DNA of 64,000 nt, from positions 1,088,001 through 1,152,000 of the forward strand of contig CAVVPN010000012.1 in NCBI GenBank assembly GCA_963750165.1, read 5' to 3'. Below the pieces are notes generated by a model. It had not been told where the DNA came from. It searched no databases and saw nothing but the letters and a program-made list of their open reading frames with translations. A program made the translations under genes and the position numbers. This DNA is from an uncultured Gemmataceae bacterium. Its GTDB lineage: Bacteria; Planctomycetota; Planctomycetia; Gemmatales; Gemmataceae. The first letter of the stretch is position 1; each line of letters opens with the position of its first letter. Below are positions 4,375 to 15,488 of this stretch, piece after piece.

Positions 4375-5244
4375 ATGCTGCAATTTGAGAACCCAGGCCC
4401 TTCTGGTCGGCGGACGGTCTGGCGGCGGCTGCGCTGGCTGCTGGGCGGGGGTCTGTTCGTGACGGTGGCGGTGCTGCTGGCACAGGTGGGCCACATCGTG
4501 CTGGGCGGCAACTTTCACGAGGTGGTGCGCGGCGAGGTCTACCGCAGTGCCCAGCTGTCGCCAGCGACGCTGGAGGCGTACATCCGGGCGTACCGCATTC
4601 GCACCGTGATCAATTTGCGGGGTGAGAATTTTGACGACGAGTGGTATCACCGCGAAATCGAGACGACCGTCCGTGCGGGGGCGGTGTTCGAGGACGTGGG
4701 ACTGTGGGCGTACAGTCCACCGCCGCCGGGCGAACTGATCCGCCTGGTGGATTTCCTGGAGCACGCCGAGACGCCCATCCTGGTCCACTGCCACACCGGC
4801 GCGGACCGAGCGGGGTTGGCGTCGGTGCTGGCCTTGCTGCTGCGCACTGACACCTCATTGTCACAGGCGCGCGGCCAGCTGACGCTCTACTACGGCCACA
4901 ACCGCTGGGGCAAGGCCGCCTGCCACGACCGCCTGCTTGACCGCTACGAAGAATGGTTGCAGGCGACGGGCAAGCCGCACAGCCCGGACATGCTGCGCCA
5001 CTGGGTCCGCCATCTGTACGATCCGGAACGGATCATGAATCAGCGCACCGAACACAGTTCACGTGCGGATCACTCGACTCAATGCTCAGCTGCAACCTCA
5101 GTTGGCCCGTCACGTGCAACAACTGGTTTGGGTCAAGAAAAATGTCCGCGTCCCCTTTTTCTTCTTGTCGATCTGAACATCTCCGCTTGTACTCAAAAGG
5201 CCCGTCCGCAGCAGTGGTTGGTTCGGCTCAACAAGCTACGCTGA
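4375..5244 (+). CDS. Protein tyrosine / dual-specificity phosphatase family protein; C-terminus reads through attC sites
   Basis: NFHEV...YRSAQ, VINLRG, HCHTGADRAG (CX5R); last ~65 aa are translated attC/junction DNA. Confidence 0.85.
   Translation: MLQFENPGPSGRRTVWRRLRWLLGGGLFVTVAVLLAQVGHIVLGGNFHEVVRGEVYRSAQLSPATLEAYIRAYRIRTVINLRGENFDDEWYHREIETTVRAGAVFEDVGLWAYSPPPPGELIRLVDFLEHAETPILVHCHTGADRAGLASVLALLLRTDTSLSQARGQLTLYYGHNRWGKAACHDRLLDRYEEWLQATGKPHSPDMLRHWVRHLYDPERIMNQRTEHSSRADHSTQCSAATSVGPSRATTGLGQEKCPRPLFLLVDLNISACTQKARPQQWLVRLNKLR
5047..5132 (-). other. attC-like integron cassette site
   Basis: Minus strand CCCAAAC...GTTGCACGTG...CACGTGAAC...GTTCGGT: R''/L''/L'/R' boxes with one extrahelical base; similar to 5702-5791. 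Confidence 0.8.
5199..5227 (-). other. Truncated attC-like site (R''-L'' half only)
   Basis: Minus strand GCCGAACCAACCACTGCTGCGGACGGGCC; no complementary arm found. Confidence 0.6.
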
Positions 5245-5276
5245 CCCCTTTTCTTCTTCCCGGATTTGACGCGCGG

Positions 5277-5687
5277 CTAGTCCGCGGGCGGCGACGGGGG
5301 TGGTTTGGGTTTAAGCCGTGGCTTGATCCACTCGGTGTCCAGGAACCCGGGTAGCGACTCGGCCAGTTTCTCTGGCCCGCTGTCGTCCGACCCGATCTTG
5401 TACACTGCCGGATCCCCGTCCAGACGCAGGCAAAAGTAGTCGTTGTCGTCGTCCGTCCCAATCAGCAGGTACTCTTTCCACCAATTCGGGTACGGCTCAT
5501 AGAGGCTACAGCGGGGATCTCGCTCGCGAAGGTTCTCGCTGAGGACATCGTCTGGCCGCGCCCAGATCCAACTGCCCAGTTGGCTGGCTCGAAACTCAGC
5601 CCCATGGGCAAGCATCAGTTCGCGATACGCGGTCGGGAGGGTTATTCCCAGCCCACCCGCGATTCGGTTCAAGTCTTCCTCAGTCAT
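5277..5687 (-). CDS. SMI1/KNR4 (SUKH) family immunity-like protein, gene cassette
   Basis: MTEEDL..I...LGITLPTAYRELM...LLIGTDDDNDYFCL...VY; GGAG RBS and ATG just after the attC R' box. Confidence 0.82.
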   Translation of the reverse strand: MTEEDLNRIAGGLGITLPTAYRELMLAHGAEFRASQLGSWIWARPDDVLSENLRERDPRCSLYEPYPNWWKEYLLIGTDDDNDYFCLRLDGDPAVYKIGSDDSGPEKLAESLPGFLDTEWIKPRLKPKPPPSPPAD

Positions 5688-5701
5688 GCGCTTCTCCAAT
5701 C

Positions 5702-5791
5702 GCCGAACAACCCCAGTTCACGTGCGGGCCACTCGTCTCAATGTGTCCGATTTACCTCAGATAGCCCGTCACGTGCAACGGCTGGTTCGGC
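5702..5791 (-). other. attC-like integron cassette site
   Basis: Minus strand GCCGAACCAGCCGTTGCACGTGACGGGC...GCCCGCACGTGAACTGGGGTTGTTCGGC; complementary R boxes, extrahelical G in L''. Confidence 0.88.
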
Positions 5792-5818
5792 CAAAATAAT
5801 GATGAATGTCCCCTTTTC

Positions 5819-6000
5819 CCTGGACCTGTGGGCCGCAGTGCAGCGCTTGCCGCTCTACGAAGCCGCCTTGCACCTGGCGGAGACCTTCGGCTTGCGCCGG
5901 AACAGAGAAGAGGAACCCGTGAAGAGAACCCGTTGACCGCTTCGCCAGAGAGGGCGGAAAAAAGAACCGTCATCACGACGGACGGTTCTTGACTTTCAAC
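5819..6000 (+). pseudogene. 3' remnant of a CHC2 zinc-finger-type ORF plus terminal hairpin (possible IS91-like element end)
   Basis: LDLWAAVQRLPLYEAALHLAETFG resembles the C-terminal helix region of CHC2 domains; followed by hairpin aagaaccgtc...gacggttctt. Confidence 0.45.
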
Positions 6001-6179
6001 GGTACATCTTTTCTTTCTCGGCCAGCCTCACATCCCGCACATCAGATCGAGCTGCGTCCTCTTTTCTTCGTCGCGTCGCCTGGTATCCCTTCGCGATTCC
6101 CGTTAAACTTGCCTTACCGTTGTGGACCTGCCCATCCGAATCTTTCACCCTTGTCGTGAAACTCAACCGGAGCAGTATC

Positions 6180-7475
6180 ATGCGAAATGTACGGCGTACC
6201 CGACCCACCCTTGAGTCCCTTGAGAACCGACTCTGCCCCACCGGCCTCACCGTTCGCTTCATCAGCGGCACTCTGTACATCAGCGGCGATTCCACCAGCA
6301 GGATCATTAATCTGAACCAGACCCTACTTACCGGCCAGATCCAGGTATTCGACAACACCTCCCTCCTGGGCACCTTCAGTGCCAACAGCATCAACCTCCA
6401 GACCGGCAACGCCGCGGAAACCGTCACCTTGACCCTGGCCGGCTCGCGCACCTTCAACGGCAATGTCTCCCTCACCACCGGGAACGGAAACGACCAGATT
6501 GTCGTCACCGGCGACGGCAGCGGTCTCCCGCAGATTTCCGGTAACCTCACCATTAACACGGGCCAGGGTACCAACCAGGTCACCACCGGCACAACCGGCA
6601 GTTTCCAAGTCAGCGGCAACGTCTTACTTCAAGGCGCCGGCAGCGACACCTTTACCATCGAGGGTGGCACCGTCATCAACGGCAACCTCAGCGCCACCGA
6701 TCCGACGGGGACCTTCCAGCTCGGCGGAAGCGGTGATGGTGCGGCGGTCAAGGGCAACGTGACCATCAACGGCGCGGGCAGCCACAACGTCACCGTCACC
6801 CCCAATGGGGGCGTCTTCGGGAACTTCCAATCCTCCACGGGTGGCGGTCTCAACCAGGTCACGATCAACGCCCCCATCCTGGGCAACGTCAACGTGACCG
6901 AGACCGGTAGCCCCAGCAACCTGACGCTGACCTCCCTGGTCGGCGGCAGCCTGACCTACACGGGCTCGGGGACCAATTCCGTCAATCTCATCCTCGCGTC
7001 CATGATCGGTGGCGATGCCACGTTGAACCTGGGCAACGGCGACAGCAATTACACGCTCGGCGGCGCCGCGACCATCTATGGCAGTCTGCGGGTCAATGCC
7101 GGCAACGGGACGGACATCGGCTTCCTGAACGGCACGATCAACCGCAACCTGTCGATCACCGTCGGCAACGGCGCCAATACGCTGACCATTGCGAACGCCC
7201 CGGGTGGTGTCCTGTCCTGGACGAGCGGCAATGGCAACAGCTCCCTGATGCTCGGGTTCAGTCTCTTCACCACCGGACCCGAAACCTGGACCGTCAACGT
7301 GCGCTTCGGCACCGGCAGCGACACGTTCGCGCTGAGCGGCGCGGTGGCGCCCACCCACTACCTCACCGGCTTTGTGGACATGGGCGGCCCTCCGGGCGGG
7401 AACTCCTTCGATCCGGCGCATGCGCTGGGGGTGAACTGGCAAGTGCTCGGGCCGTTCACGATCCAGAACGTGTAA
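6180..7475 (+). CDS. Planctomycete extracellular protein with N-terminal LEPR-XLL-like motif and G/N/T-rich beta-helical repeats
   Basis: MRNVRRTRPTLESLENRLCP; repeats of GN(L/V)T(I/V)xxGxGxD. Confidence 0.8.
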   Translation: MRNVRRTRPTLESLENRLCPTGLTVRFISGTLYISGDSTSRIINLNQTLLTGQIQVFDNTSLLGTFSANSINLQTGNAAETVTLTLAGSRTFNGNVSLTTGNGNDQIVVTGDGSGLPQISGNLTINTGQGTNQVTTGTTGSFQVSGNVLLQGAGSDTFTIEGGTVINGNLSATDPTGTFQLGGSGDGAAVKGNVTINGAGSHNVTVTPNGGVFGNFQSSTGGGLNQVTINAPILGNVNVTETGSPSNLTLTSLVGGSLTYTGSGTNSVNLILASMIGGDATLNLGNGDSNYTLGGAATIYGSLRVNAGNGTDIGFLNGTINRNLSITVGNGANTLTIANAPGGVLSWTSGNGNSSLMLGFSLFTTGPETWTVNVRFGTGSDTFALSGAVAPTHYLTGFVDMGGPPGGNSFDPAHALGVNWQVLGPFTIQNV

Positions 7476-7571
7476 ACCGACCTGGCCGTTCCTCGGGCAG
7501 GATAAGGGGCACTCAACATGATAAGGCCTGAAAGGAATGAACGTCCCCTGTTCCTGCCCAAAGCCTCTCGC

Positions 7572-7666
7572 GCCGAACCCGGGAGTTCTGTTACTCGGCG
7601 CGCTTCTGCCGCTGCCAGTCAGCTGCACCAGGCCGCGCGCCGAGTAACAGCAACGTGTGGTTCGGC
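7572..7666 (-). other. attC-like integron cassette site
   Basis: Minus strand GCCGAACCACACGTTGCTGTTACTCGGCGCGC...GCGCGCCGAGTAACAGAACTCCCGGGTTCGGC; extrahelical G. Confidence 0.85.
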
Positions 7667-7886
7667 TTGGCGGACCGGTAGGCAGAGACCCCCGTGTTCC
7701 TGGGGGCCGGCCGGTTGCCCTTGGGCAGACCGAGGGGGTGCTGCTGGCAACCTCGAGCCAGCGCCCGCCTCACCAGCGTCGATGCACCTACCCTCGTCGT
7801 ACCGACGGAGCCGAGACCGTGACTGCCGGCCGGAGCGTGTCGGGCGGCTCAGGGCTGCCGGGGCGAGGCGGGCGGCGGCGGGGTGC

Positions 7887-7949
7887 CGCTAACGACTAAG
7901 CTCACTTGCCGGGGCCGCCTCGATCAACGTCATGCCGCGCAAAAAAACC
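7887..7949 (-). other. attC-like half site (L'-R') cut by the ISL3 insertion
   Basis: Minus strand ...GCGGCCCCGGCAAGTGAGCTTAGTCGTTAGCG; other arm absent beyond the IS end at 7950. Confidence 0.6.
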
Positions 7950-7963
7950 GGTTCTTCCGTTTT

Positions 7964-8088
7964 TAGAGCGGTTCGCGTTTGGGTAGCGCACAAGTCGTGG
8001 GACGGCTCTCCAGAGCCGTCAGCGTTCTCCCGACGGCTCTGGAGAGCCGTCCCACGACTTGTAGTCCACGCGACTGGGAACCGCTCTA
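7964..8088. mobile_element. MITE-like element with TAGAGCGGTT/AACCGCTCTA ends and an internal REP-like palindrome
   Basis: Inserted at the TA of ggttcttccgttttTAggtgc (uninterrupted form at 11242); TA on both sides; internal gtgggacggctctccagagccgtc...gacggctctggagagccgtcccac. Confidence 0.85.
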
Positions 8089-8628
8089 GGTGCAAGCGCC
8101 TGAGAAAATGGCCCGGAAGCCCGCCACCAGTTCCCGAATGTGGGCGATGGTCTGCCGCACCAGATCCTTGCCTCGGTTTAGGTCCAGGATCAACCGGCTC
8201 CACAGACTGTCCGCGGACTTCAGCCCGTAGGCACGCTTGACAATCACGCGCGCCTTGTTGTTGATCCCCTCCACTGGCCCACTCGTCTGCCGGCCCTCGA
8301 AGTAGTTCAGGATCTCGTCTTGCCAGGTCTCGAAGGTCACGATGAACTTCTCCATCGCCGGGAACTCCTCCAGGATGTCCAGCCACACCCCGGTCAGCCA
8401 CCGTAGCGCCTGCCGCCGGTCCGTGGCCGTGTCGAAGATCTTCTGGAAGCGCACGCGGATCTCGTACAGCCGCCGCAGCCGGGGCAACTGCTCAAACAAG
8501 GCCTCCAGCTTCGCTTGCTCTGCCTTGGTCAGGTCCTTGGGGTTGCGGCGGAACTCCCACATCAACGAGCGAAATTCCTTCCGTTGCGCCTTCGTGAGCT
8601 TCTGCTTGTGGCCCCGCGTGATTTTTTT
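8086..8628 (-). pseudogene. ISL3 transposase, 3' part
   Basis: ILNYF...TSGPVEGINNKARVIVKRAYG motif. Confidence 0.9.
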
Positions 8629-10301
8629 CTAGGACAGCAAAGCCGGCTAGACAGCTAACCTGGGTTTGGGTTACGCTTTAGCGCCCCAACCCAGGAGCTT
8701 GCCATGGCCAGGAAGGCGCCCCGCCCCGAACCCACCTTCACCCAACACCTGGACGCCTTGTACCAGGACTGCCCCGCCTGCCACCGACGGATGTGGTCCG
8801 ACTACCGGAACGACCGCACCGTCGTCACCCTGCTGGGCCTGACACGGCTGGTGCTCCACATCCGCCGCTGCCACACCGCCGACTGCCCACGCCACCTGCA
8901 GCCCTACCGGCCCGAGGCCGAGGGCCGCCACGCCCTGCCCCAGCACGAGTTCGGCCTGGACGTCATCGCCCACCTCGGCGCCCTCCGCTACGCCGAGCAC
9001 CGCTCCGTCCCCGAGATCCACCAGCACCTGGTCGCCCGGGGCCTGGCCATCGCCGAGCGGACGGTCACCAACCTCCTGGAGCGCTACGACGAACTGCTGG
9101 CCGTCACCCTGACCGACGCCGGCCGCCTGCGCGGGTTGCTGGCCGCGCAGGGCCGCGTCATCCTGGCCATCGACGGCCTGCAGCCCGACGTCGGCCACGA
9201 GGTGCTCTGGGTGTTGCGCGACTGCCTCTCCGGCACCGTCCTGCTGGCCCGCAGCCTGTTGTCCAGCCGGCAGCAGGACCTGGCCGAACTCATCGGCCAG
9301 GTGCGCGACGGCCTGGCGGTGCCGATCACCGGGGTGGTCTCCGACGGCCAGCACTCCATCCGCAAGGCCGTGGCCGAAGCCTTGCCCGGCGTGCCGCACC
9401 AACTCTGCCACTTCCACTACCTCCGCGAAGCCGCCCGGCCCATCTACGAGGCCGACCGCCACGCCAAGAAGGAACTCAAGAAGCGCGTCCGCGGCGTGCG
9501 GCCCCTCGAGCGCCAGGTGGAGGGCCGCACCGACCCCGAGGCCCAGGCCATCCAGGGGTACTGCGACGCGGTCCGCAGTGCCGTGACCGACGACGGCCGG
9601 CCGCCCCTGGAAGCGTCCGGGCTGAAACTCCACGACCGCCTGAGCGCCGTGGTGGCCAGCCTGGACGGGGTGGCCGAAAAAAGGGGCTCCCGAAAGAACT
9701 CGTCCGGCTGAGGCTGCTGCTCGTGGCGGCGTTGGCGGCCACGGCGCCGCTGTGGCCCCCGGTGCGCGTGGCCTTCGCCTGGGTCTGGCAGGCGGCGCAC
9801 CTGCTGGGCGAACACGGCCCCGGGGTGGCCCCAGCCGTGCGGCAGCGCCTGGGTGGTCTGCTCGGGGCGATGACCCGCCACCGCGGGCTGGTCGGGGCGC
9901 TGGCGAGCGGGGTCGAGCACTTCGTGAAGGTCACCCGGAGCTACTGGCCGGGGCTGTTCCACTGCTACGCCGTCGCGGACCTACCGCGGACGAACAACGA
10001 CCTGGAGCAGTTCTTCGGCAGCCATCGCTACCACGAGCGCCGGGCCAGCGGCCGCACGGGGGCGTCCCCGAGTCTGGTGCTCCGTGGGGAGGCCCGCGTG
10101 TTGGCGGCCGCGGCGACCCGGCAGCACGTCTACACAGCGGAAGAGTTGGCGGAGGCAGACCCGGTCAGGCAGGCGGAACTCCGCCAACACCTGGAGTCCC
10201 GCCGCCGCCGCCGAGTCAACCGCACACGGTTCCGTCGCAATCCCCGGGCGTTCCTCCAACAGTTGGAGGAAAAACTGCTCCAGCCGGCTTTGCTGTCCTA
10301 G
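8629..10301 (+). mobile_element. ISNCY-like (MULE-fold DDE) insertion sequence nested in ISL3
   Basis: 20-bp IRs ctaggacagcaaagccggct / agccggctttgctgtcctag; flanked by T7 and T8 runs. Confidence 0.85.
8704..10301 (+). CDS. DDE transposase in two frames (probable -1 frameshift at GAAAAAAGGGG near 9677-9687)
   Basis: CxxC...C zinc motif, IDGLQP, VVSDG, HQLCHFH; second frame ...PRTNNDLEQFFG; stop lies in the right IR. Confidence 0.85.
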
Positions 10302-11077
10302 TTTTTTTTCCGCTCCTGGTCCACGACCTCGTTGAACTTCTTGGCGACGTGGAAGCGGTCGATGACCGCCTGGGCGTTGGGCAGCAAGCCCCGACAAGCG
10401 GCGTGGAACGCCGGCCCCATGTCGGCCCGGTAGGTATGCACCTGCAGGCGCTGCGCCGCGGACAACTTCTCCAGGCACTGCTGCGCCGCCGCCGCGTCAC
10501 GGCCTGCGGTCACCGCCAGCACTTCGGGCCGGTCGGGGTTGGTCAGGTCGGTCAGGATCGTCACGTAGAGCTTGTGCCGCTTCTTCAGGCTCAACTCGTC
10601 AATGCCCACGTCCTGGATCACGCGCTGGGGGTCGATCGTCTTGGCCTGGGTGTCGGCCAACTGGTTGCGGACGATCAGGCCGACCGTCTCCGCCGAGATG
10701 CCCAGGCGGCGGGCCACCTCCTCCTCGTTACTGCCGATCAGCGCCCGCAAGACGTGCTGCTCGAAGCGGTAGGTGTAGCTCGTGTCCCGGCGCTTGAAGG
10801 GCGGGATCAGGTGTTGTCGGTGATGGCAGTGGGGGCAGCGGTGGAAAACCGGTTGGTAGATCCAGAAGCTCGGTTGGCCCCAGAGTTCCAGGTCGCGGAC
10901 GACTTGCACCGTCTCCTTGAACTCCAGGTGCGCGTCCTCCTCGCGGCGGCAGCGGTCGCAGCGACAGCGGTTGGGCAAGGGCCAGGAGACTTCAAAGCCG
11001 TGGCCGTCGCCGTGGCGCTCGTAAGCCACGATGGTGACGCCTTCCGGGAGATCCACGTCGATAGTGATGGTGGCCAT
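10298..11077 (-). pseudogene. ISL3 transposase, 5' part
   Basis: CxxC zinc finger, GIDE, DMGPAF, IDRFHV motifs; truncated at the A-run by the nested IS. Confidence 0.9.
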
Positions 11078-11241
11078 GACCGTCCCTGACGAGCAAGCAT
11101 CGAGAACCCCAGGGCCGGCCGACGCACGGCACCTATCCAGAAATGTAAGCCCCGCACGCCGCCCAGAAAAGGCTCAAAAATCCAGGCACTCGCACTTTAC
11201 CCCGGAAGAACCCTTTCTTCGGGACGAAGAAGGATTCTTCC

Positions 11242-11363
11242 GGCTCTTCCGTTTTTAGGTGCGAAACACTGGATTTTCGGTGAACGGACGATCACGTGCC
11301 CCACGATTTTTCCAGGAAAATTGAGAATCGGGCCGATAACCCGCACCTAAAAACGGAAGAGCC
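11242..11363. mobile_element. 122-bp ISL3-derived MITE
   Basis: Perfect 22-bp IRs ggctcttccgtttttaggtgcg / cgcacctaaaaacggaagagcc matching the ISL3 end; no ORF. Confidence 0.88.
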
Positions 11364-11473
11364 GAAGAAAGCATGTCCTCTTCGTCAACGACGGTGGAGC
11401 GAATTTCCAGCTGCGACACTAGCTCGCCCAGGAAGAACTTGCACCATTACAGGGGGTAGATTATTTTCCCCAG

Positions 11474-12061
11474 ATGACACAGCCGCCAGAGCCTCTCCCC
11501 GATCCACAGCCCACGGCCCGCGACCTTCAAAACGCCCGCAGCCGTCAGGTAATCGCCGAGCGTCAGCAGCAGGAATATGATCGCGTGGTGCTCTGGGCGA
11601 TGGGGAAGTTCGGGGCCGGCTGGCTCCCGAGCGGGCGGCACTTTTTGTTGGATCACGAAGAAGAAGTCCGTTGCCGCCGGACGGGTGAACGTCCCGTTGC
11701 CGCCGCCACGGTATTCACGGTCAGGAACGGCGAAGGCCAGAAACGGCATTTTACAGTGAAGGACGGCCAGGTGACGGAATGCTCCGGCTATGAAGAGGGC
11801 TTCGGGCCGATGCTGCTGGAACGCCACCCAACGATGACCATCGAGGTCCGTGGGGAGAAAGTTCACCCGCACCGCTACTCGTTGTGTTGGGCGCCGATTG
11901 AAACGTACCAGCCGAGATCCGCCGAGCAACTCGCCGCGGCGAGGAGCACGCGGGAACGGAACAAGGCCGCGCGAGAGCAGCAAAAGTACGAACGGGAATA
12001 CCCCCTCTTTGCCGAGATTGAGCGGCAGGAAGAGGCAGAGCGGTCATCCGTCACCCGGTAG
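11474..12061 (+). CDS. Hypothetical protein
   Basis: 195-aa ORF with plausible composition; no family recognised. Confidence 0.6.
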   Translation: MTQPPEPLPDPQPTARDLQNARSRQVIAERQQQEYDRVVLWAMGKFGAGWLPSGRHFLLDHEEEVRCRRTGERPVAAATVFTVRNGEGQKRHFTVKDGQVTECSGYEEGFGPMLLERHPTMTIEVRGEKVHPHRYSLCWAPIETYQPRSAEQLAAARSTRERNKAAREQQKYEREYPLFAEIERQEEAERSSVTR

Positions 12062-12089
12062 GACGGCATCATCGTGGCCAGTCTGCGAA

Positions 12090-12204
12090 GCGCAATCAGG
12101 CAGATCAGCGTCTGGCTAAAAACCTGGCAGAGGGTCTGTAGCTGGATAATGTCGATCCGCCGGTCGCCGCGCTCAACCCCGCTTACAAACGACTGTGACA
12201 GCCC
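12090..12204 (-). pseudogene. XRE-family HTH fragment
   Basis: GLSQSFVSGVERGDRRIDIIQLQTLCQVF directly after the recombinase stop; no start codon. Confidence 0.65.
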
Positions 12205-13176
12205 CTAGAACAACTCCTCGACCGCCCTCTCCTTCTGCTCGTCCGAAGGCTTGACGTAACGCCAGATGTAATTGCTGCTGCTGTGGCCGGACAGCTCCAT
12301 CGCGAACTGAACGCCCTTCTTCTCCGCCGCCCGCCGGAGCATCGTGTGCCGCAGCACGTGGGCGGACAGGTGGATCTTCTGGTCCGCCGGAAGATGTGCG
12401 TTGGCCTGGTTGGCCAGCGCCTTCAGGGCATCGTCCACGTTGGAGCGGCGCAGCCGTTTGCCCGACCGCGACAGAAAGAGCGGCCCGGCTTCCTTGCCCC
12501 TCGTCTCGTCGATGTAACGGTCGAGTGCCTCCCTGGCTTCACCAGCCAGGAACACTTTGGCGGACACCTTCCTGCCTTTCCTCCTGACATCCACAAAATG
12601 CTTGCCCCGGTACTGGGCCAGGTCGAGGCCCAGCAGTTCCGACACGCGCAACCCCGTCTAGAGGAGGAGCAGGAACACCGCGTAATCCCGAAGCGCGTGC
12701 TGGTTCTTGGCCGTCTTCAGGCAGAGCAGTTGCTCGGCCGCTGAGCGGAGCCGGGTGACCTCCAGGTCGGAAAGGCCCTTCCAGGAGGGCTCGTCAATTT
12801 GCACGTCGGCGATACGGTCGGTCGGGTTGCCGGCAAGGAACGGCCGCTGACGGTGAACCCAGGTGGCCGCGTGGCGCAGAGTGGCGAGCGCCCGGTTGAC
12901 GGTGGTGGGCTTCTTTTCCGCGCGGTCAAGGGCCTTGAGGTAGCCGGCGGTGAGCGACCGGGTCCACTGGTCGGGGTGGTCGCTTCCCGACGTTTGGGTG
13001 AAGTACCCGAGGAAGGCTTCGAGGTCGCGTTGCTTCGCCCGGAACGTGTTCGGCGAGCCGGCGGCCGCTTCGACGGTCATGTACACCTCCAGCCAGGCGG
13101 TGAGGCTGTGACGCCGGTCGTGCGGCAGCAGCGAACTGGTCAGGGCGGGAACGGTCGTCAAGGCGCCGCGGCTCAT
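12205..13176 (-). pseudogene. Tyrosine recombinase (XerC/D-like) with an in-frame TAG at 12658-12660
   Basis: LLL*TGLRVSE, HVLRH, SGH, WRY catalytic motifs; both ORF pieces in the same frame. Confidence 0.88.
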
Positions 13177-13565
13177 CCGGGCTTCCTTATCAGATGAACT
13201 TTGATGCCGAGATCCACCTTGGTCCAGTCCTGATCGGCAGTGAGTACCGCCGTGCTGGCCAGCGCGGCCGTCGCCAGGCAGGCACGGTCGGCGAAGGAGA
13301 AATCGTGGGGGCGGGTTGCAGGCCGGAAAGAGGCGGCAGCCAGCGCGCGCGCCTCATCGAACGGCACGATGGTCAGGCGGAGGCCGTTCAGTGCGTGCTT
13401 GATCGTTTCAAACGGCACATTCCGGTCGAGTGATTTGGCAATGGCCTCGGAGAAAGAGACGGCGGACACCAACCCAGCCTGCCCACGGGCCTGGACCGTG
13501 TCGGCCCCCTTCTCGGCGAACAGGAGCGCGAGCAACGCCGACGTGTCCAGAACGAGTTTACTCAC
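13173..13565 (-). CDS. vapC: VapC-like PIN-domain toxin
   Basis: VLDTSALLA...SE...SFADRACLA...LTAD PIN motifs. Confidence 0.9.
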   Translation of the reverse strand: MSKLVLDTSALLALLFAEKGADTVQARGQAGLVSAVSFSEAIAKSLDRNVPFETIKHALNGLRLTIVPFDEARALAAASFRPATRPHDFSFADRACLATAALASTAVLTADQDWTKVDLGIKVHLIRKPG

Positions 13566-13848
13566 CGGCCGGCCATTTGCGTGATTCCTTCTGAGCCTCT
13601 TTACGCCGCTCCTGGATCAACTCATCCACGACGCTGACCCCCGGAACGCGGTAAGGAGCGAAGGCTTCCTGAGCCGCCCGCACGGCCTGGGCGAAGGTTT
13701 GCAAGTGGATACCCTGGGCATCGGCCGAGATGATGAGGTCGGAGCCTGGCTCGATTCCAAGCTTCTGGCGAAGGTTGGCCGGGACCATGACGCGGCCAGC
13801 GGGATCGACACGGACACGGAGGTATTCTGGTTCCTGGTGAGTGGGCAT
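13558..13848 (-). CDS. vapB: AbrB/MazE-type antitoxin
   Basis: VDPAGRVMVPANLRQKLGIEPG; SVVDELIQERR; overlaps the PIN gene. Confidence 0.88.
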   Translation of the reverse strand: MPTHQEPEYLRVRVDPAGRVMVPANLRQKLGIEPGSDLIISADAQGIHLQTFAQAVRAAQEAFAPYRVPGVSVVDELIQERRKEAQKESRKWPAGE

Positions 13849-14053
13849 GACGACTCAAACACTCTGTGTAATGGCTTATCTGGCAATCTTGCCAGAATCC
13901 GAACAAGCTGTCAACGATCAGAGAATTGGGACTCAGAAGTGACCTGGCAGCCGGAGCGATTCCACCCGATTCACCCCGGATTCATCTTATGTCCTGCAAG
14001 ATTTTCGGTTTTGGTGAATTGACTTCCTGACACTTCCTTAAACTGGAATCATG

Positions 14054-14087
14054 GTTGCAGGACGTAAGGTACATTATGACCTGCAAC
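14054..14087. promoter_or_regulatory. dif-like tyrosine recombinase core site (14-6-14)
   Basis: gttgcaggacgtaa-ggtaca-ttatgacctgcaac; extra arm copy ttatgtcctgcaa at 13987-13999. Confidence 0.7.
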
Positions 14088-14340
14088 TGAGAGATCACAC
14101 ATGGAGACGGCAGCGCAATTGAACCACTAACAGAAATAAGAGATCAACAGAGGTTGTTACTCGTTTATAGCAAGATTTCTTGTAAACATGATTACTTGGC
14201 AACTTGCTTGCAAACATTTGGAGATAAGCGTCAGGGAAATGGCAAAGCACCCGTGGTTGACCGACCTTCCTGCCTTGTGAACCTCCCCACGAATGGTGGA
14301 CACCCAGTTAAGAGTGTAAACTCTCCTGAGGAGGTCCATC

Positions 14341-14637
14341 ATGGCCAGAACCCGACGTACCTACACCCCGGAGTTCAAGCTCGAGGCCGTCAAGCTCGTC
14401 ACTGAGCAGGGCTACTCCGTCGCCGAGGCCGCACGCTCCCTCGGCATCCACGAGACCCTGCTCCGCTCCTGGAAGCAGGCGCTGGAGGCCAAGGGCGGCC
14501 AGGCCTTCCCCGGCCAGGGCAAGCTCTCCCCCTTCGAGGAAGAGAACCGCCGCCTCCGGGCCGAGAACCAGCGGCTCCTGGCGGAGCGCGACATCCTAAA
14601 AAAAGCGACGGCGTTCTTCGCCAGGGAGGCGACATGA
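14341..14637 (+). CDS. IS3 transposase OrfA
   Basis: RRTYTPEFKLEAVKLV HTH; ERDILKKA with an A7G slippery site. Confidence 0.93.
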   Translation: MARTRRTYTPEFKLEAVKLVTEQGYSVAEAARSLGIHETLLRSWKQALEAKGGQAFPGQGKLSPFEEENRRLRAENQRLLAERDILKKATAFFAREAT

Positions 14638-15488
14638 CCTTCCGCTTCATCGAGGAACACCGCGGCCAGTGGCCCGTGCGCCTGCTCTGCGAAACCCTGG
14701 AGGTCTCGACCGCCGGCTACTACGCCTGGCGCGACCGCCCCGCCAGCGACCGCGCCCGGCGCCGCGACACCCTCCTCGTGGAAATCCGCGCCATCCACGC
14801 CGAGGTCAAGGCCCGCTACGGCAGCCCGCGCATCCACGCCGAGCTGGTCGCCCGGGGCCAGGACTGCTGCGTCAACACCGTGGCCCGGCTCATGCACGAC
14901 CACGACCTCCGGGCCAAGACGGCCCGCAAGTTCCGCTGCACGACCGACTCCAACCACGACCTGCCCGTGGCCGCGAACCTCCTGGATCGGCAGTTCAACC
15001 CCGCCGCGGCCAACGAGGCGTGGGTGGCGGACATCACCTACATCCCGACCCGGGAGGGTTGGCTGTACCTGGCTGTCGTCGAGGACCTGTACTCGCGGCG
15101 GGTGGTGGGCTGGTCGATGGCCGACCACCTGGAGAGCCGGCTGGTCGTCGATGCCCTGGAGCTGGCGGTGCAGCGCCGGCTGCCGGGGGAGGGGTTGCTG
15201 GCCCACTCCGACCGGGGCAGCCAGTACGCCAGCGACCACTACCAACGCCTCCTGGGCAAGCACGGCATCACCTGCAGCATGAGCCGCCGGGCCGACTGCT
15301 GGGACAATGCCCCGATGGAGAGCTTCTTCGCCTCCTTGAAGAAGGAACTGGTGCACGACGCCGACTTCGCCACCCGGGCGGAGGCGCGGGCGGCGCTCGT
15401 CGAGTACATCGAGGTCTTCTACAACAGCCAGCGCCGGCACTCGTCGCTGGGGTACGTGTCCCCGGCCGAGTATGAACAGTCCGAATAA
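14634..15488 (+). CDS. IS3 transposase OrfB (integrase core)
   Basis: WVADITY, HSDRGSQY, DNAPMESFF DDE motifs. Confidence 0.95.
   Translation: MTFRFIEEHRGQWPVRLLCETLEVSTAGYYAWRDRPASDRARRRDTLLVEIRAIHAEVKARYGSPRIHAELVARGQDCCVNTVARLMHDHDLRAKTARKFRCTTDSNHDLPVAANLLDRQFNPAAANEAWVADITYIPTREGWLYLAVVEDLYSRRVVGWSMADHLESRLVVDALELAVQRRLPGEGLLAHSDRGSQYASDHYQRLLGKHGITCSMSRRADCWDNAPMESFFASLKKELVHDADFATRAEARAALVEYIEVFYNSQRRHSSLGYVSPAEYEQSE

Follow-up and report, generated by a model that had tools for sequence, protein, structure and literature searches.

We report that single arms of the terminal inverted repeats (TIRs) of TIRtron/TIRYT elements are fused to attC sites in the genome of an uncultured Gemmataceae bacterium (assembly GCA_963750165.1), as seen in a stretch of 64,000 nucleotides (nt) from contig CAVVPN010000012.1 (positions 1,088,001 to 1,152,000, referred to as the window). 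A first-pass annotation of the window had pointed to the motif AAAGGGG(A/T)C just before the R'' boxes of attC sites on the minus strand, and three such copies are present (tags at 5808-5816, 5243-5251 and 5150-5158), followed after 16, 15 and 17 nt, respectively, by R'' boxes at 5785-5791, 5221-5227 and 5126-5132. The arms stand before R'' in one orientation and at a spacing that is specific to the arm type, both of their ends are breakpoints, and junctions of this kind recur across genomes. The sequence data suggest that the single arms are scars of an HUH (Y1) transposase that cut behind the arm and joined the cut end at or near the foot of the attC hairpin, a reading to which we give a probability of roughly one half.

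It is the fusion to attC that appears to be new; the repeat family and the transposase family are already published, and the range in which the fusion is seen is narrow. The system had been proposed as undescribed, which does not apply to the motif and the transposase family (PMC3733652, PMC6006769) and may apply to the fusion: our literature search returned no description of TIR repeats fused to attC, with most subscription papers and the figures and supplements of PMC3733652 and PMC6006769 lying outside that search.

The motif is the terminal tag of TIRtron/TIRYT elements

TIRtron/TIRYT elements are known from the literature to end in the tag AAAGGGG(A/T)C. Tyrosine transposase genes flanked by inverted repeats of consensus GGGGWSAS were described as TIRtrons/TIRYT by Di Nocera et al. 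(2013; PMC3733652, main text), and Quentin et al. (2018) assigned most TIRYT enzymes to TnpA-Y1 subclass 2.1 (PMC6006769, main text). All four window copies fit GGGGWC, and the full 8-mer is found in the copy at 5243 only. The genome has four Y1_Tnp matches, three of which are over the cut-off; specifically, the intact gene L001 (C11:133772-134473) carries GGTGTC-type arms at both ends and the frameshifted gene L002 has AAAGGGGTC at both ends. TIRYT relatives are present in 30 of 70 genomes of the family, and from 29 loci of other genomes we recovered 33 arms at TIRYT gene ends, including arm types matching those in the window. The element ends in these relatives consist of an A-run, the tag, an arm of 8-9 nt and a T-run, often followed by TTG(A), which at the 5' end of the elements is the start of the promoter. 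The arm types of the window are the same as these ends or very similar to them (with GGGGACGC and GGGGACAT as variants that likewise occur beside true TIRYT genes in relatives), and the motif is therefore the end repeat of a known family. Thus, the suggestion that it belongs to an HUH/RAYT-like system, with Y1 transposase genes carrying it at their ends, is borne out both in this genome (as the GGTGTC variant in the case of L001) and in its relatives.

As in the published TIRtrons, GGGG(A/T)C-tagged inverted repeats surround an HUH/Y1 transposase of about 234 amino acids, and the repeats also occur as singles, inverted pairs and clusters (main text of PMC3733652 and PMC6006769); in the present genome they are likewise dispersed as singles, pairs and tandem arms. 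What differs is that single arms are fused to attC in one orientation and with set spacing, and integrons are absent from the main text of both papers. The local enzyme may differ as well. The L001 protein (234 amino acids; PF01797, 49 bits, over the cut-off) has the motifs NHWH, YQ, YVERNA and WSS, close to those in Table 1 of PMC6006769 without matching them; subclass 2.1 is given there as HUH plus a catalytic Tyr, about 238 amino acids, NH[YF]H or NHVH, FQ or W[EQ], Y..LNP and an SS tail. At E 1e-4 the protein matched Y1_Tnp only and no C-terminal helix-turn-helix, a domain that could escape detection if divergent.

Two side observations concern the repeats themselves. Three TIR tags (C11:878540, C12:1304438 and C3:2678103) are each joined, within their GGGG, to one and the same sequence end that appears to come from an insertion sequence (IS), and this suggests that an IS may target TIR repeats. 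Moreover, a module of about 370 nt that starts at a TIR outer end is present in three copies (C12:63763-64134, C3:2672824-2673196 and C3:2678104-2678430); it has GCCGAAC 20 nt behind the tag and no attC hairpin.

Enrichment, orientation and spacing before attC sites

The genome comprises 9.6 Mb with about 66% G+C and has a full integron integrase gene at C4:1198898 with a long array alongside. The attC set was generated by a structure scan and a profile built from 32 seeds, which gave 107 matches at E 0.05 or better, 102 of them with the R'' end kept. Within the window the number of motif copies is unremarkable (three matches against about one expected; 12 of 100 shuffles reach three) and it is their placement that is significant. 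Genome-wide, the strict 9-mer AAAGGGG(A/T)C occurs 108 times. It lies on the same strand within 60 nt 5' of R'' at 14 of the 102 attC sites, compared to 0.034 expected, and in the opposite orientation at none of the 102; it is also found within 60 nt downstream of six of the 102 sites, and within 100 nt after 4 of 4676 ordinary gene ends. With degenerate arms included, 28 of the 102 sites carry one, the commonest attC subtype more often than the rest (21/46 vs 7/56, p 3e-4). The strict count is the cleaner one because the degenerate patterns were written from these same sequences.

Enrichment before attC had been predicted together with a fixed distance, and the latter part did not stand. The distance from tag to R'' ranges between 15 and 59 nt, with a peak at 15-17 nt (7 of the 17 values under 60 nt), and the longer arm types sit 22-28 nt or further from R''.

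We also considered that arms mark the starts of arrays and rejected this (10/28 vs 18/74, p 0.32); cassette lengths were no different either (p 0.48). At about 18-19 nt before R'', many sites of the commonest subtype (type A, 46 of the 102) have a conserved leader, rich in purines, that looks like a worn arm, and a similar leader is present on a separate attC subtype of genome G118 (L285, L289). Scored as a decayed arm, the type A leader is above the leaders of other attC sites (p 0.013) and not above its own shuffles (p 0.33).

Structure of the arm-attC junctions

The join had been placed 15-17 bp upstream of attC. Comparison of junctions that share an inner end corrects this: an arm ending in TTTTTCTTGA is directly followed by R'' at window position 5133 and at C12:1304463, and by unrelated DNA at C12:288648 and C3:2418469, while intact elements run on from the arm as TTGAC into the promoter. 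Most of the 15-17 nt thus belong to the body of the repeat, which puts the join right at the base of the attC stem or a few bases ahead of R''; behind longer arms there are about 8-11 extra bases between arm and R''.

The outer arm end is also a breakpoint, in agreement with the prediction that the motif marks rearrangement breakpoints and that neighbouring sequence breaks off there. In the window it is joined into a transposase gene at 5819, where a CHC2-like fragment is cut at the tag and its homologs match to about 5819 and then continue. At window position 5167, C3:2418460, C4:1169083 and C4:1190860 it is joined into attC, such that arms and arm pairs shorten the sites; the attC at 5227 in the window, for example, ends at the base of its right arm. 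Furthermore, at C4:1190279-1190860 a TIR pair joins a truncated second intI copy (model positions 1-148) to half an attC; CCTGG is present on both flanks of this pair.

In this genome one attC subtype is fused with no fewer than five arm types, and elsewhere a single arm type occurs on many attC subtypes; this crossing points to repeated events. At most junctions the tag comes soon after the stop of a same-strand open frame. At C3:1722054 and C12:1194962 no cassette body is evident, and what precedes the arm and attC is a gene of chromosomal type or the 3' flank of one. That two arms bound a composite element was considered and rejected, as all but two junctions have no inverted tag in the downstream DNA (up to 1.5 kb).

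Junctions in other genomes and in metagenomes

Arm-attC junctions are also present in genomes G140, G077, G118 and G470. In a scan of 150 genomes of the order, 31 of 40 same-orientation matches were checked. Two of these carry a full attC (spacing 16 and 15 nt, respectively), and in a third the attC is interrupted after an R'' box at 15 nt; of the 39 reversed matches 22 were checked and none has an attC. A strict metagenome scan gave 37 loci, 26 of them with a near-full attC match. After removal of two non-attC loci and one duplicate match, the 35 junctions represent 25 distinct ones, which occur on many attC types and behind different genes. Eleven of the 25 are spaced at 15-16 nt and all of these are of the GGGGAC type (p about 5e-6 vs a uniform spread); the GGGGTC-GG arm type lies 23-27 nt from R''. 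With a loose pattern, matches in the genome collection were at about the chance number and 0 of 120 passed the attC test, one borderline locus (L079/L304) later folding as an attC. In addition, L295:5899, L298:2905 and L301:2609 share a conserved stretch, common to three genomes, before an attC with a degenerate R''.

The motif had further been thought to reshuffle cassettes without IntI. The data do not show this: a full integrase is present and some cassettes capped by an arm have ordinary G|TT crossover ends. In metagenomes, a capped 1.3-kb serine-hydrolase cassette has different neighbours at G|TT on both sides, and capped cassettes therefore appear to move by IntI.

Origin of the junctions

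A TIRYT enzyme that cuts behind the arm and joins it near the foot of the hairpin would account for the single orientation, the common inner end and the way in which arm types are crossed with attC types. Elements and arm pairs would insert past the ends of genes and within or behind attC sites. The transposase would then cut single-stranded DNA close to the T-run/TTG(A), 14-17 nt downstream of the tag, and attach the cut end at a position between 0 and about 11 nt ahead of R'', with the intervening DNA dropped. The capped attC would still be a substrate for IntI, and some arm-plus-R'' units may have spread to new genes and attC bodies. The outcome would be a remodelling of the array (empty cassettes, cut attC sites and attC joined to non-cassette DNA) alongside IntI and not in its place.

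The chemistry is assumed from the GTAG REP/RAYT systems (repetitive extragenic palindromes and their transposases; TnpA-REP groups 2 and 3), in which, according to the part of PMC8266576 used here, an HUH enzyme cuts single strands 5' or 3' of the repeat, on one strand only, and rejoins the ends. The two systems are not the same: the present arms have no GTAG foot, the protein reaches 53.9 bits with NF047646 (cut-off 80) and E 0.42 with PDB 4ER8, and PMC8266576, in that part, cites attC as a structural analogy only.

Several observations weigh against this explanation. A literature search for biochemistry on the TIRYT subclass found none. An attC match was found at 0 of 30 TIRYT loci (flanks up to 1.5 kb), and neither an intact element nor a reversed arm stands before attC (0/102 in the genome; 0 of 22 checked reversed matches in relatives), such that no precursor state is seen. 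The only intact TIRYT in the assembly has GGTGTC-type ends, unlike the arm types in the window. The spacers of some junctions are homologous across genomes, and part of the fixed spacing is thus due to common descent. Junctions of the 15-16 nt class differ in the bases that immediately precede R'', and the proposed cut point is therefore approximate. The metagenome scan was run in the junction orientation only, without a reversed control. Moreover, regions from five TIRYT-bearing relatives and other loci hold two clear and three degenerate arms among 46 attC matches, and 300 genomes of the phylum outside the order gave no junction in either orientation, with patterns tuned to CCGAAC-type attC and without a denominator. 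Two other groups gave three pattern matches in 131 genomes and none in 101; the three comprise one full attC fold behind a doubtful tag, one attC-like sequence and one that is not attC.

Of the alternatives, the one that holds up best, unlikely as we judge it, is that a few old arm-plus-R'' fusions were copied around by exchange between TIR copies or at the outer end, with attC bodies swapped behind R''. The transposase need then not recognise attC, and such copying can act together with the cut-and-join explanation. Homologous spacers across this genome (G000), G118 and metagenomes speak for it. So do L220, which shares arm and spacer with the L194 group and differs from it in gene and attC body, and L193 and L214, in which one gene and arm precede two different attC bodies. 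However, at least five unrelated arm types are present on one attC subtype in the genome and the spacers of the 15-16 nt class diverge after base 8, and several origins are therefore needed.

Passive decay, which we regard as rather improbable, would have TIR pairs or elements insert in neutral spacers of cassette arrays and be trimmed to one arm by processes of the host such as replication slippage between hairpins and microhomology deletion; selection would retain the products with an intact attC, so that deletions seem to end at R''. This is consistent with intact pairs in or just behind attC sites, with arrays full of IS debris in this genome and with tag-R'' distances that spread to 59 nt, and attC hairpins have been described as slippage-prone (in the portion of 10.1101/2022.09.11.507474 cited here). 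Random trimming predicts both arm orientations before R'', however, and the count is 14 to 0; it predicts neither the arm-type-specific spacing nor one TTGA end joined to four different sequences.

An origin of the junctions in IntI recombination between attC and a secondary site within the repeat is very improbable, even with a full integron integrase in the genome and the use of short GWT sites by IntI (same source): IntI cuts in the AAC/GTT triplet, and the joins lie 5' of R'', outside the crossover triplet, with the CCGAAC core kept in nearly all junctions. The action of IntI at secondary attG sites, which gives single attC sites and attC clusters lacking integrases (SALINs and CALINs; the cited portion of 10.1101/2022.09.11.507474), does explain the scattered attC sites and the G|TT ends of capped cassettes; a join 5' of R'' is impossible for it, and it leaves a cassette body before attC, which is seemingly missing at C3:1722054 and C12:1194962. 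Retention of the arm as a regulatory part, i.e. a -35 box or terminator for the next cassette, has equally little to commend it, since although the 5' arms of intact elements hold the TTGAC of the transposase promoter, a GC-rich attC stem lies 17 nt behind TTGA with no -10-like hexamer (by reading the sequence), and the origin of the fusion is left unexplained.

Organisation of the window locus

The part of the window that holds the junctions is a small attC cluster with no integrase nearby. The order of its parts is a half attC cut by an ISL3 element, the attC at 7572-7666, a decayed repeat pair, an oppositely oriented gene of 451 amino acids, a lone arm at about 6046-6065, a transposase fragment, an arm and attC, an SMI1/KNR4 cassette, an arm and half attC and, finally, an arm and attC. 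Unless otherwise indicated the features are on the minus strand. R'' and R' boxes, L boxes and an imperfect bottom-strand hairpin are present in the sites at 5702-5791 and 7572-7666; the site at 5047-5132 is damaged and that at 5167-5227 is a half.

Only the right half of the attC at 7887-7944 is present (profile positions 41-93); the end of an ISL3-family element takes the place of the left half, and ISL3 domains are found at 8086-8565 and 10298-11077. The attC at 7572-7666 is complete and of a different subtype (structure scan and profile; fold z -5.5). Just past it, the decayed inverted pair of TIR arms at 7495-7559 (no strand assigned) includes the variant at 7543-7551, correctly noted before as a fourth copy close to an attC; the fold of 7495-7575 pairs both arms. 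The arm at about 6046-6065, overlooked in the first-pass annotation, is the fifth and of the GAGGAC-GCAGCTC type, which is also present at a TIRYT gene in L238; no attC lies directly behind it.

On the plus strand, 5819-5936 holds the C-terminal fragment of an integrase-core transposase with a CHC2-like tail (labelled from reading the translation), cut within a few bases of the TIR tag. Its homologs L258-L261 match to about 5818-5820 and then run on, and a full-length relative is present in L262. The same transposase family is also broken in L259 and L264, with TIR arms at or near the break, and the arms at 6046-6065 and 5808 bracket the window fragment in direct orientation. The outer end of the single GGGGAC-ATTCA arm at 5792-5819 (tag 5808-5816) is joined into this transposase gene; the arm ends in TTTTG at R'', and its type is present at three further junctions in the genome. 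Behind it is the complete type A attC at 5702-5791 (R'' GCCGAAC, R' GTTCGGC; structure scan; profile 46.5 bits; fold z -2.6 to -3.1).

The cassette gene at 5277-5684 is complete and encodes a member of the SMI1/KNR4 (SUKH) immunity-protein family (PF09346, E 1e-11, model positions 3-124 of 125). About 25 nt past its stop starts the tag at 5243-5251 of a single GGGGTC-AGCGTAG arm (5228-5260), which ends in TTGA at R''. The truncated attC that follows (5167-5227) keeps R'', the left arm and the loop, and the next TIR arm replaces its right arm; it matches the profile only over model positions 1-50 and was aligned by eye to complete sites. That next arm (5133-5166, tag 5150-5158) is of the GGGGAC-GCGGAC type, which also flanks TIRYT genes in L235 and L237; it ends in TTTTTCTTGA directly at R'', and its A-run and T-run are able to pair. 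The last attC of the cluster (5047-5132; R'' CCCAAAC at 5126-5132, R' at 5047-5053) has a shortened right spacer, a profile match of 29.5 bits and a bottom-strand hairpin fold (z -1.2 with flanks), and its R' end adjoins the 3' part of an oppositely oriented phosphatase gene (phosphatase domain match).

An Rfam search matched nothing relevant. A short cassette without a clear gene occupies 7667-7887; its 3' part resembles DNA before attC at C12:347898, C3:2416794, C4:1174109 and C4:1175820, a possible non-coding cassette family. Inside the ISL3 element end, 7988-8064 is a long near-perfect palindrome of a dispersed repeat family, with an Rfam microRNA match far below the gathering score. The stretch 8086-15488 is nested mobile DNA in which a second IS splits ISL3 and pieces of tyrosine recombinase are present, with a gene pair resembling a toxin-antitoxin module at 13173-13848 and a further IS at 14341-15488 (both by reading translations).

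A possible role of the arms in the formation of gene cassettes

How a gene acquires its first attC is an open question, referred to an unnamed "native mechanism" in PMC8352920, and an intron route to cassettes has been suggested (in the part of PMC7923331 considered here). A speculative and, in our judgement, improbable extension of the cut-and-join explanation is that TIR arms serve as adaptors for making gene cassettes, the arm being a scar of cassette birth. A TIRtron would land just behind a chromosomal gene, the transposase would join the arm to attC and thereby cap the gene, and a new cassette would arise when IntI excises the gene using a GWT site upstream of it; the conserved leader of the commonest attC subtype (46/102) would be the remains of worn arms. 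Of 31 element ends, 10 fall 0-40 nt after the stop codon of a long frame, compared to 6% of random positions, a figure that is inflated, the elements being intergenic, and IntI can excise from nearby secondary sites (10.1101/2022.09.11.507474, as cited above). Several capped genes are long, unlike typical small cassette genes (e.g. those for a sulfate permease, a sigma-54 activator and a gluconolactonase), and may be cassettes or flanks. Among the matches listed, no cassette occurs both with an arm and in an armless form.

An arm that lands behind a gene and is joined to attC would parallel the proposal for group IIC-attC introns as cassette-forming agents (same part of PMC7923331), where a mobile element found at attC and at gene ends could likewise join both. 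Those introns are RNA-based and insert inside attC, whereas here a DNA repeat of an HUH transposase lies mainly just before R''. With a DNA repeat that inserts after genes and is found joined to the base of attC, the acquisition of attC would have a concrete substrate, an enzyme and a predicted product. Even without cassette birth, the cut-and-join explanation, if true, would give TIRYT enzymes their first described target in the literature that we found, and would add a second force that edits cassette arrays.

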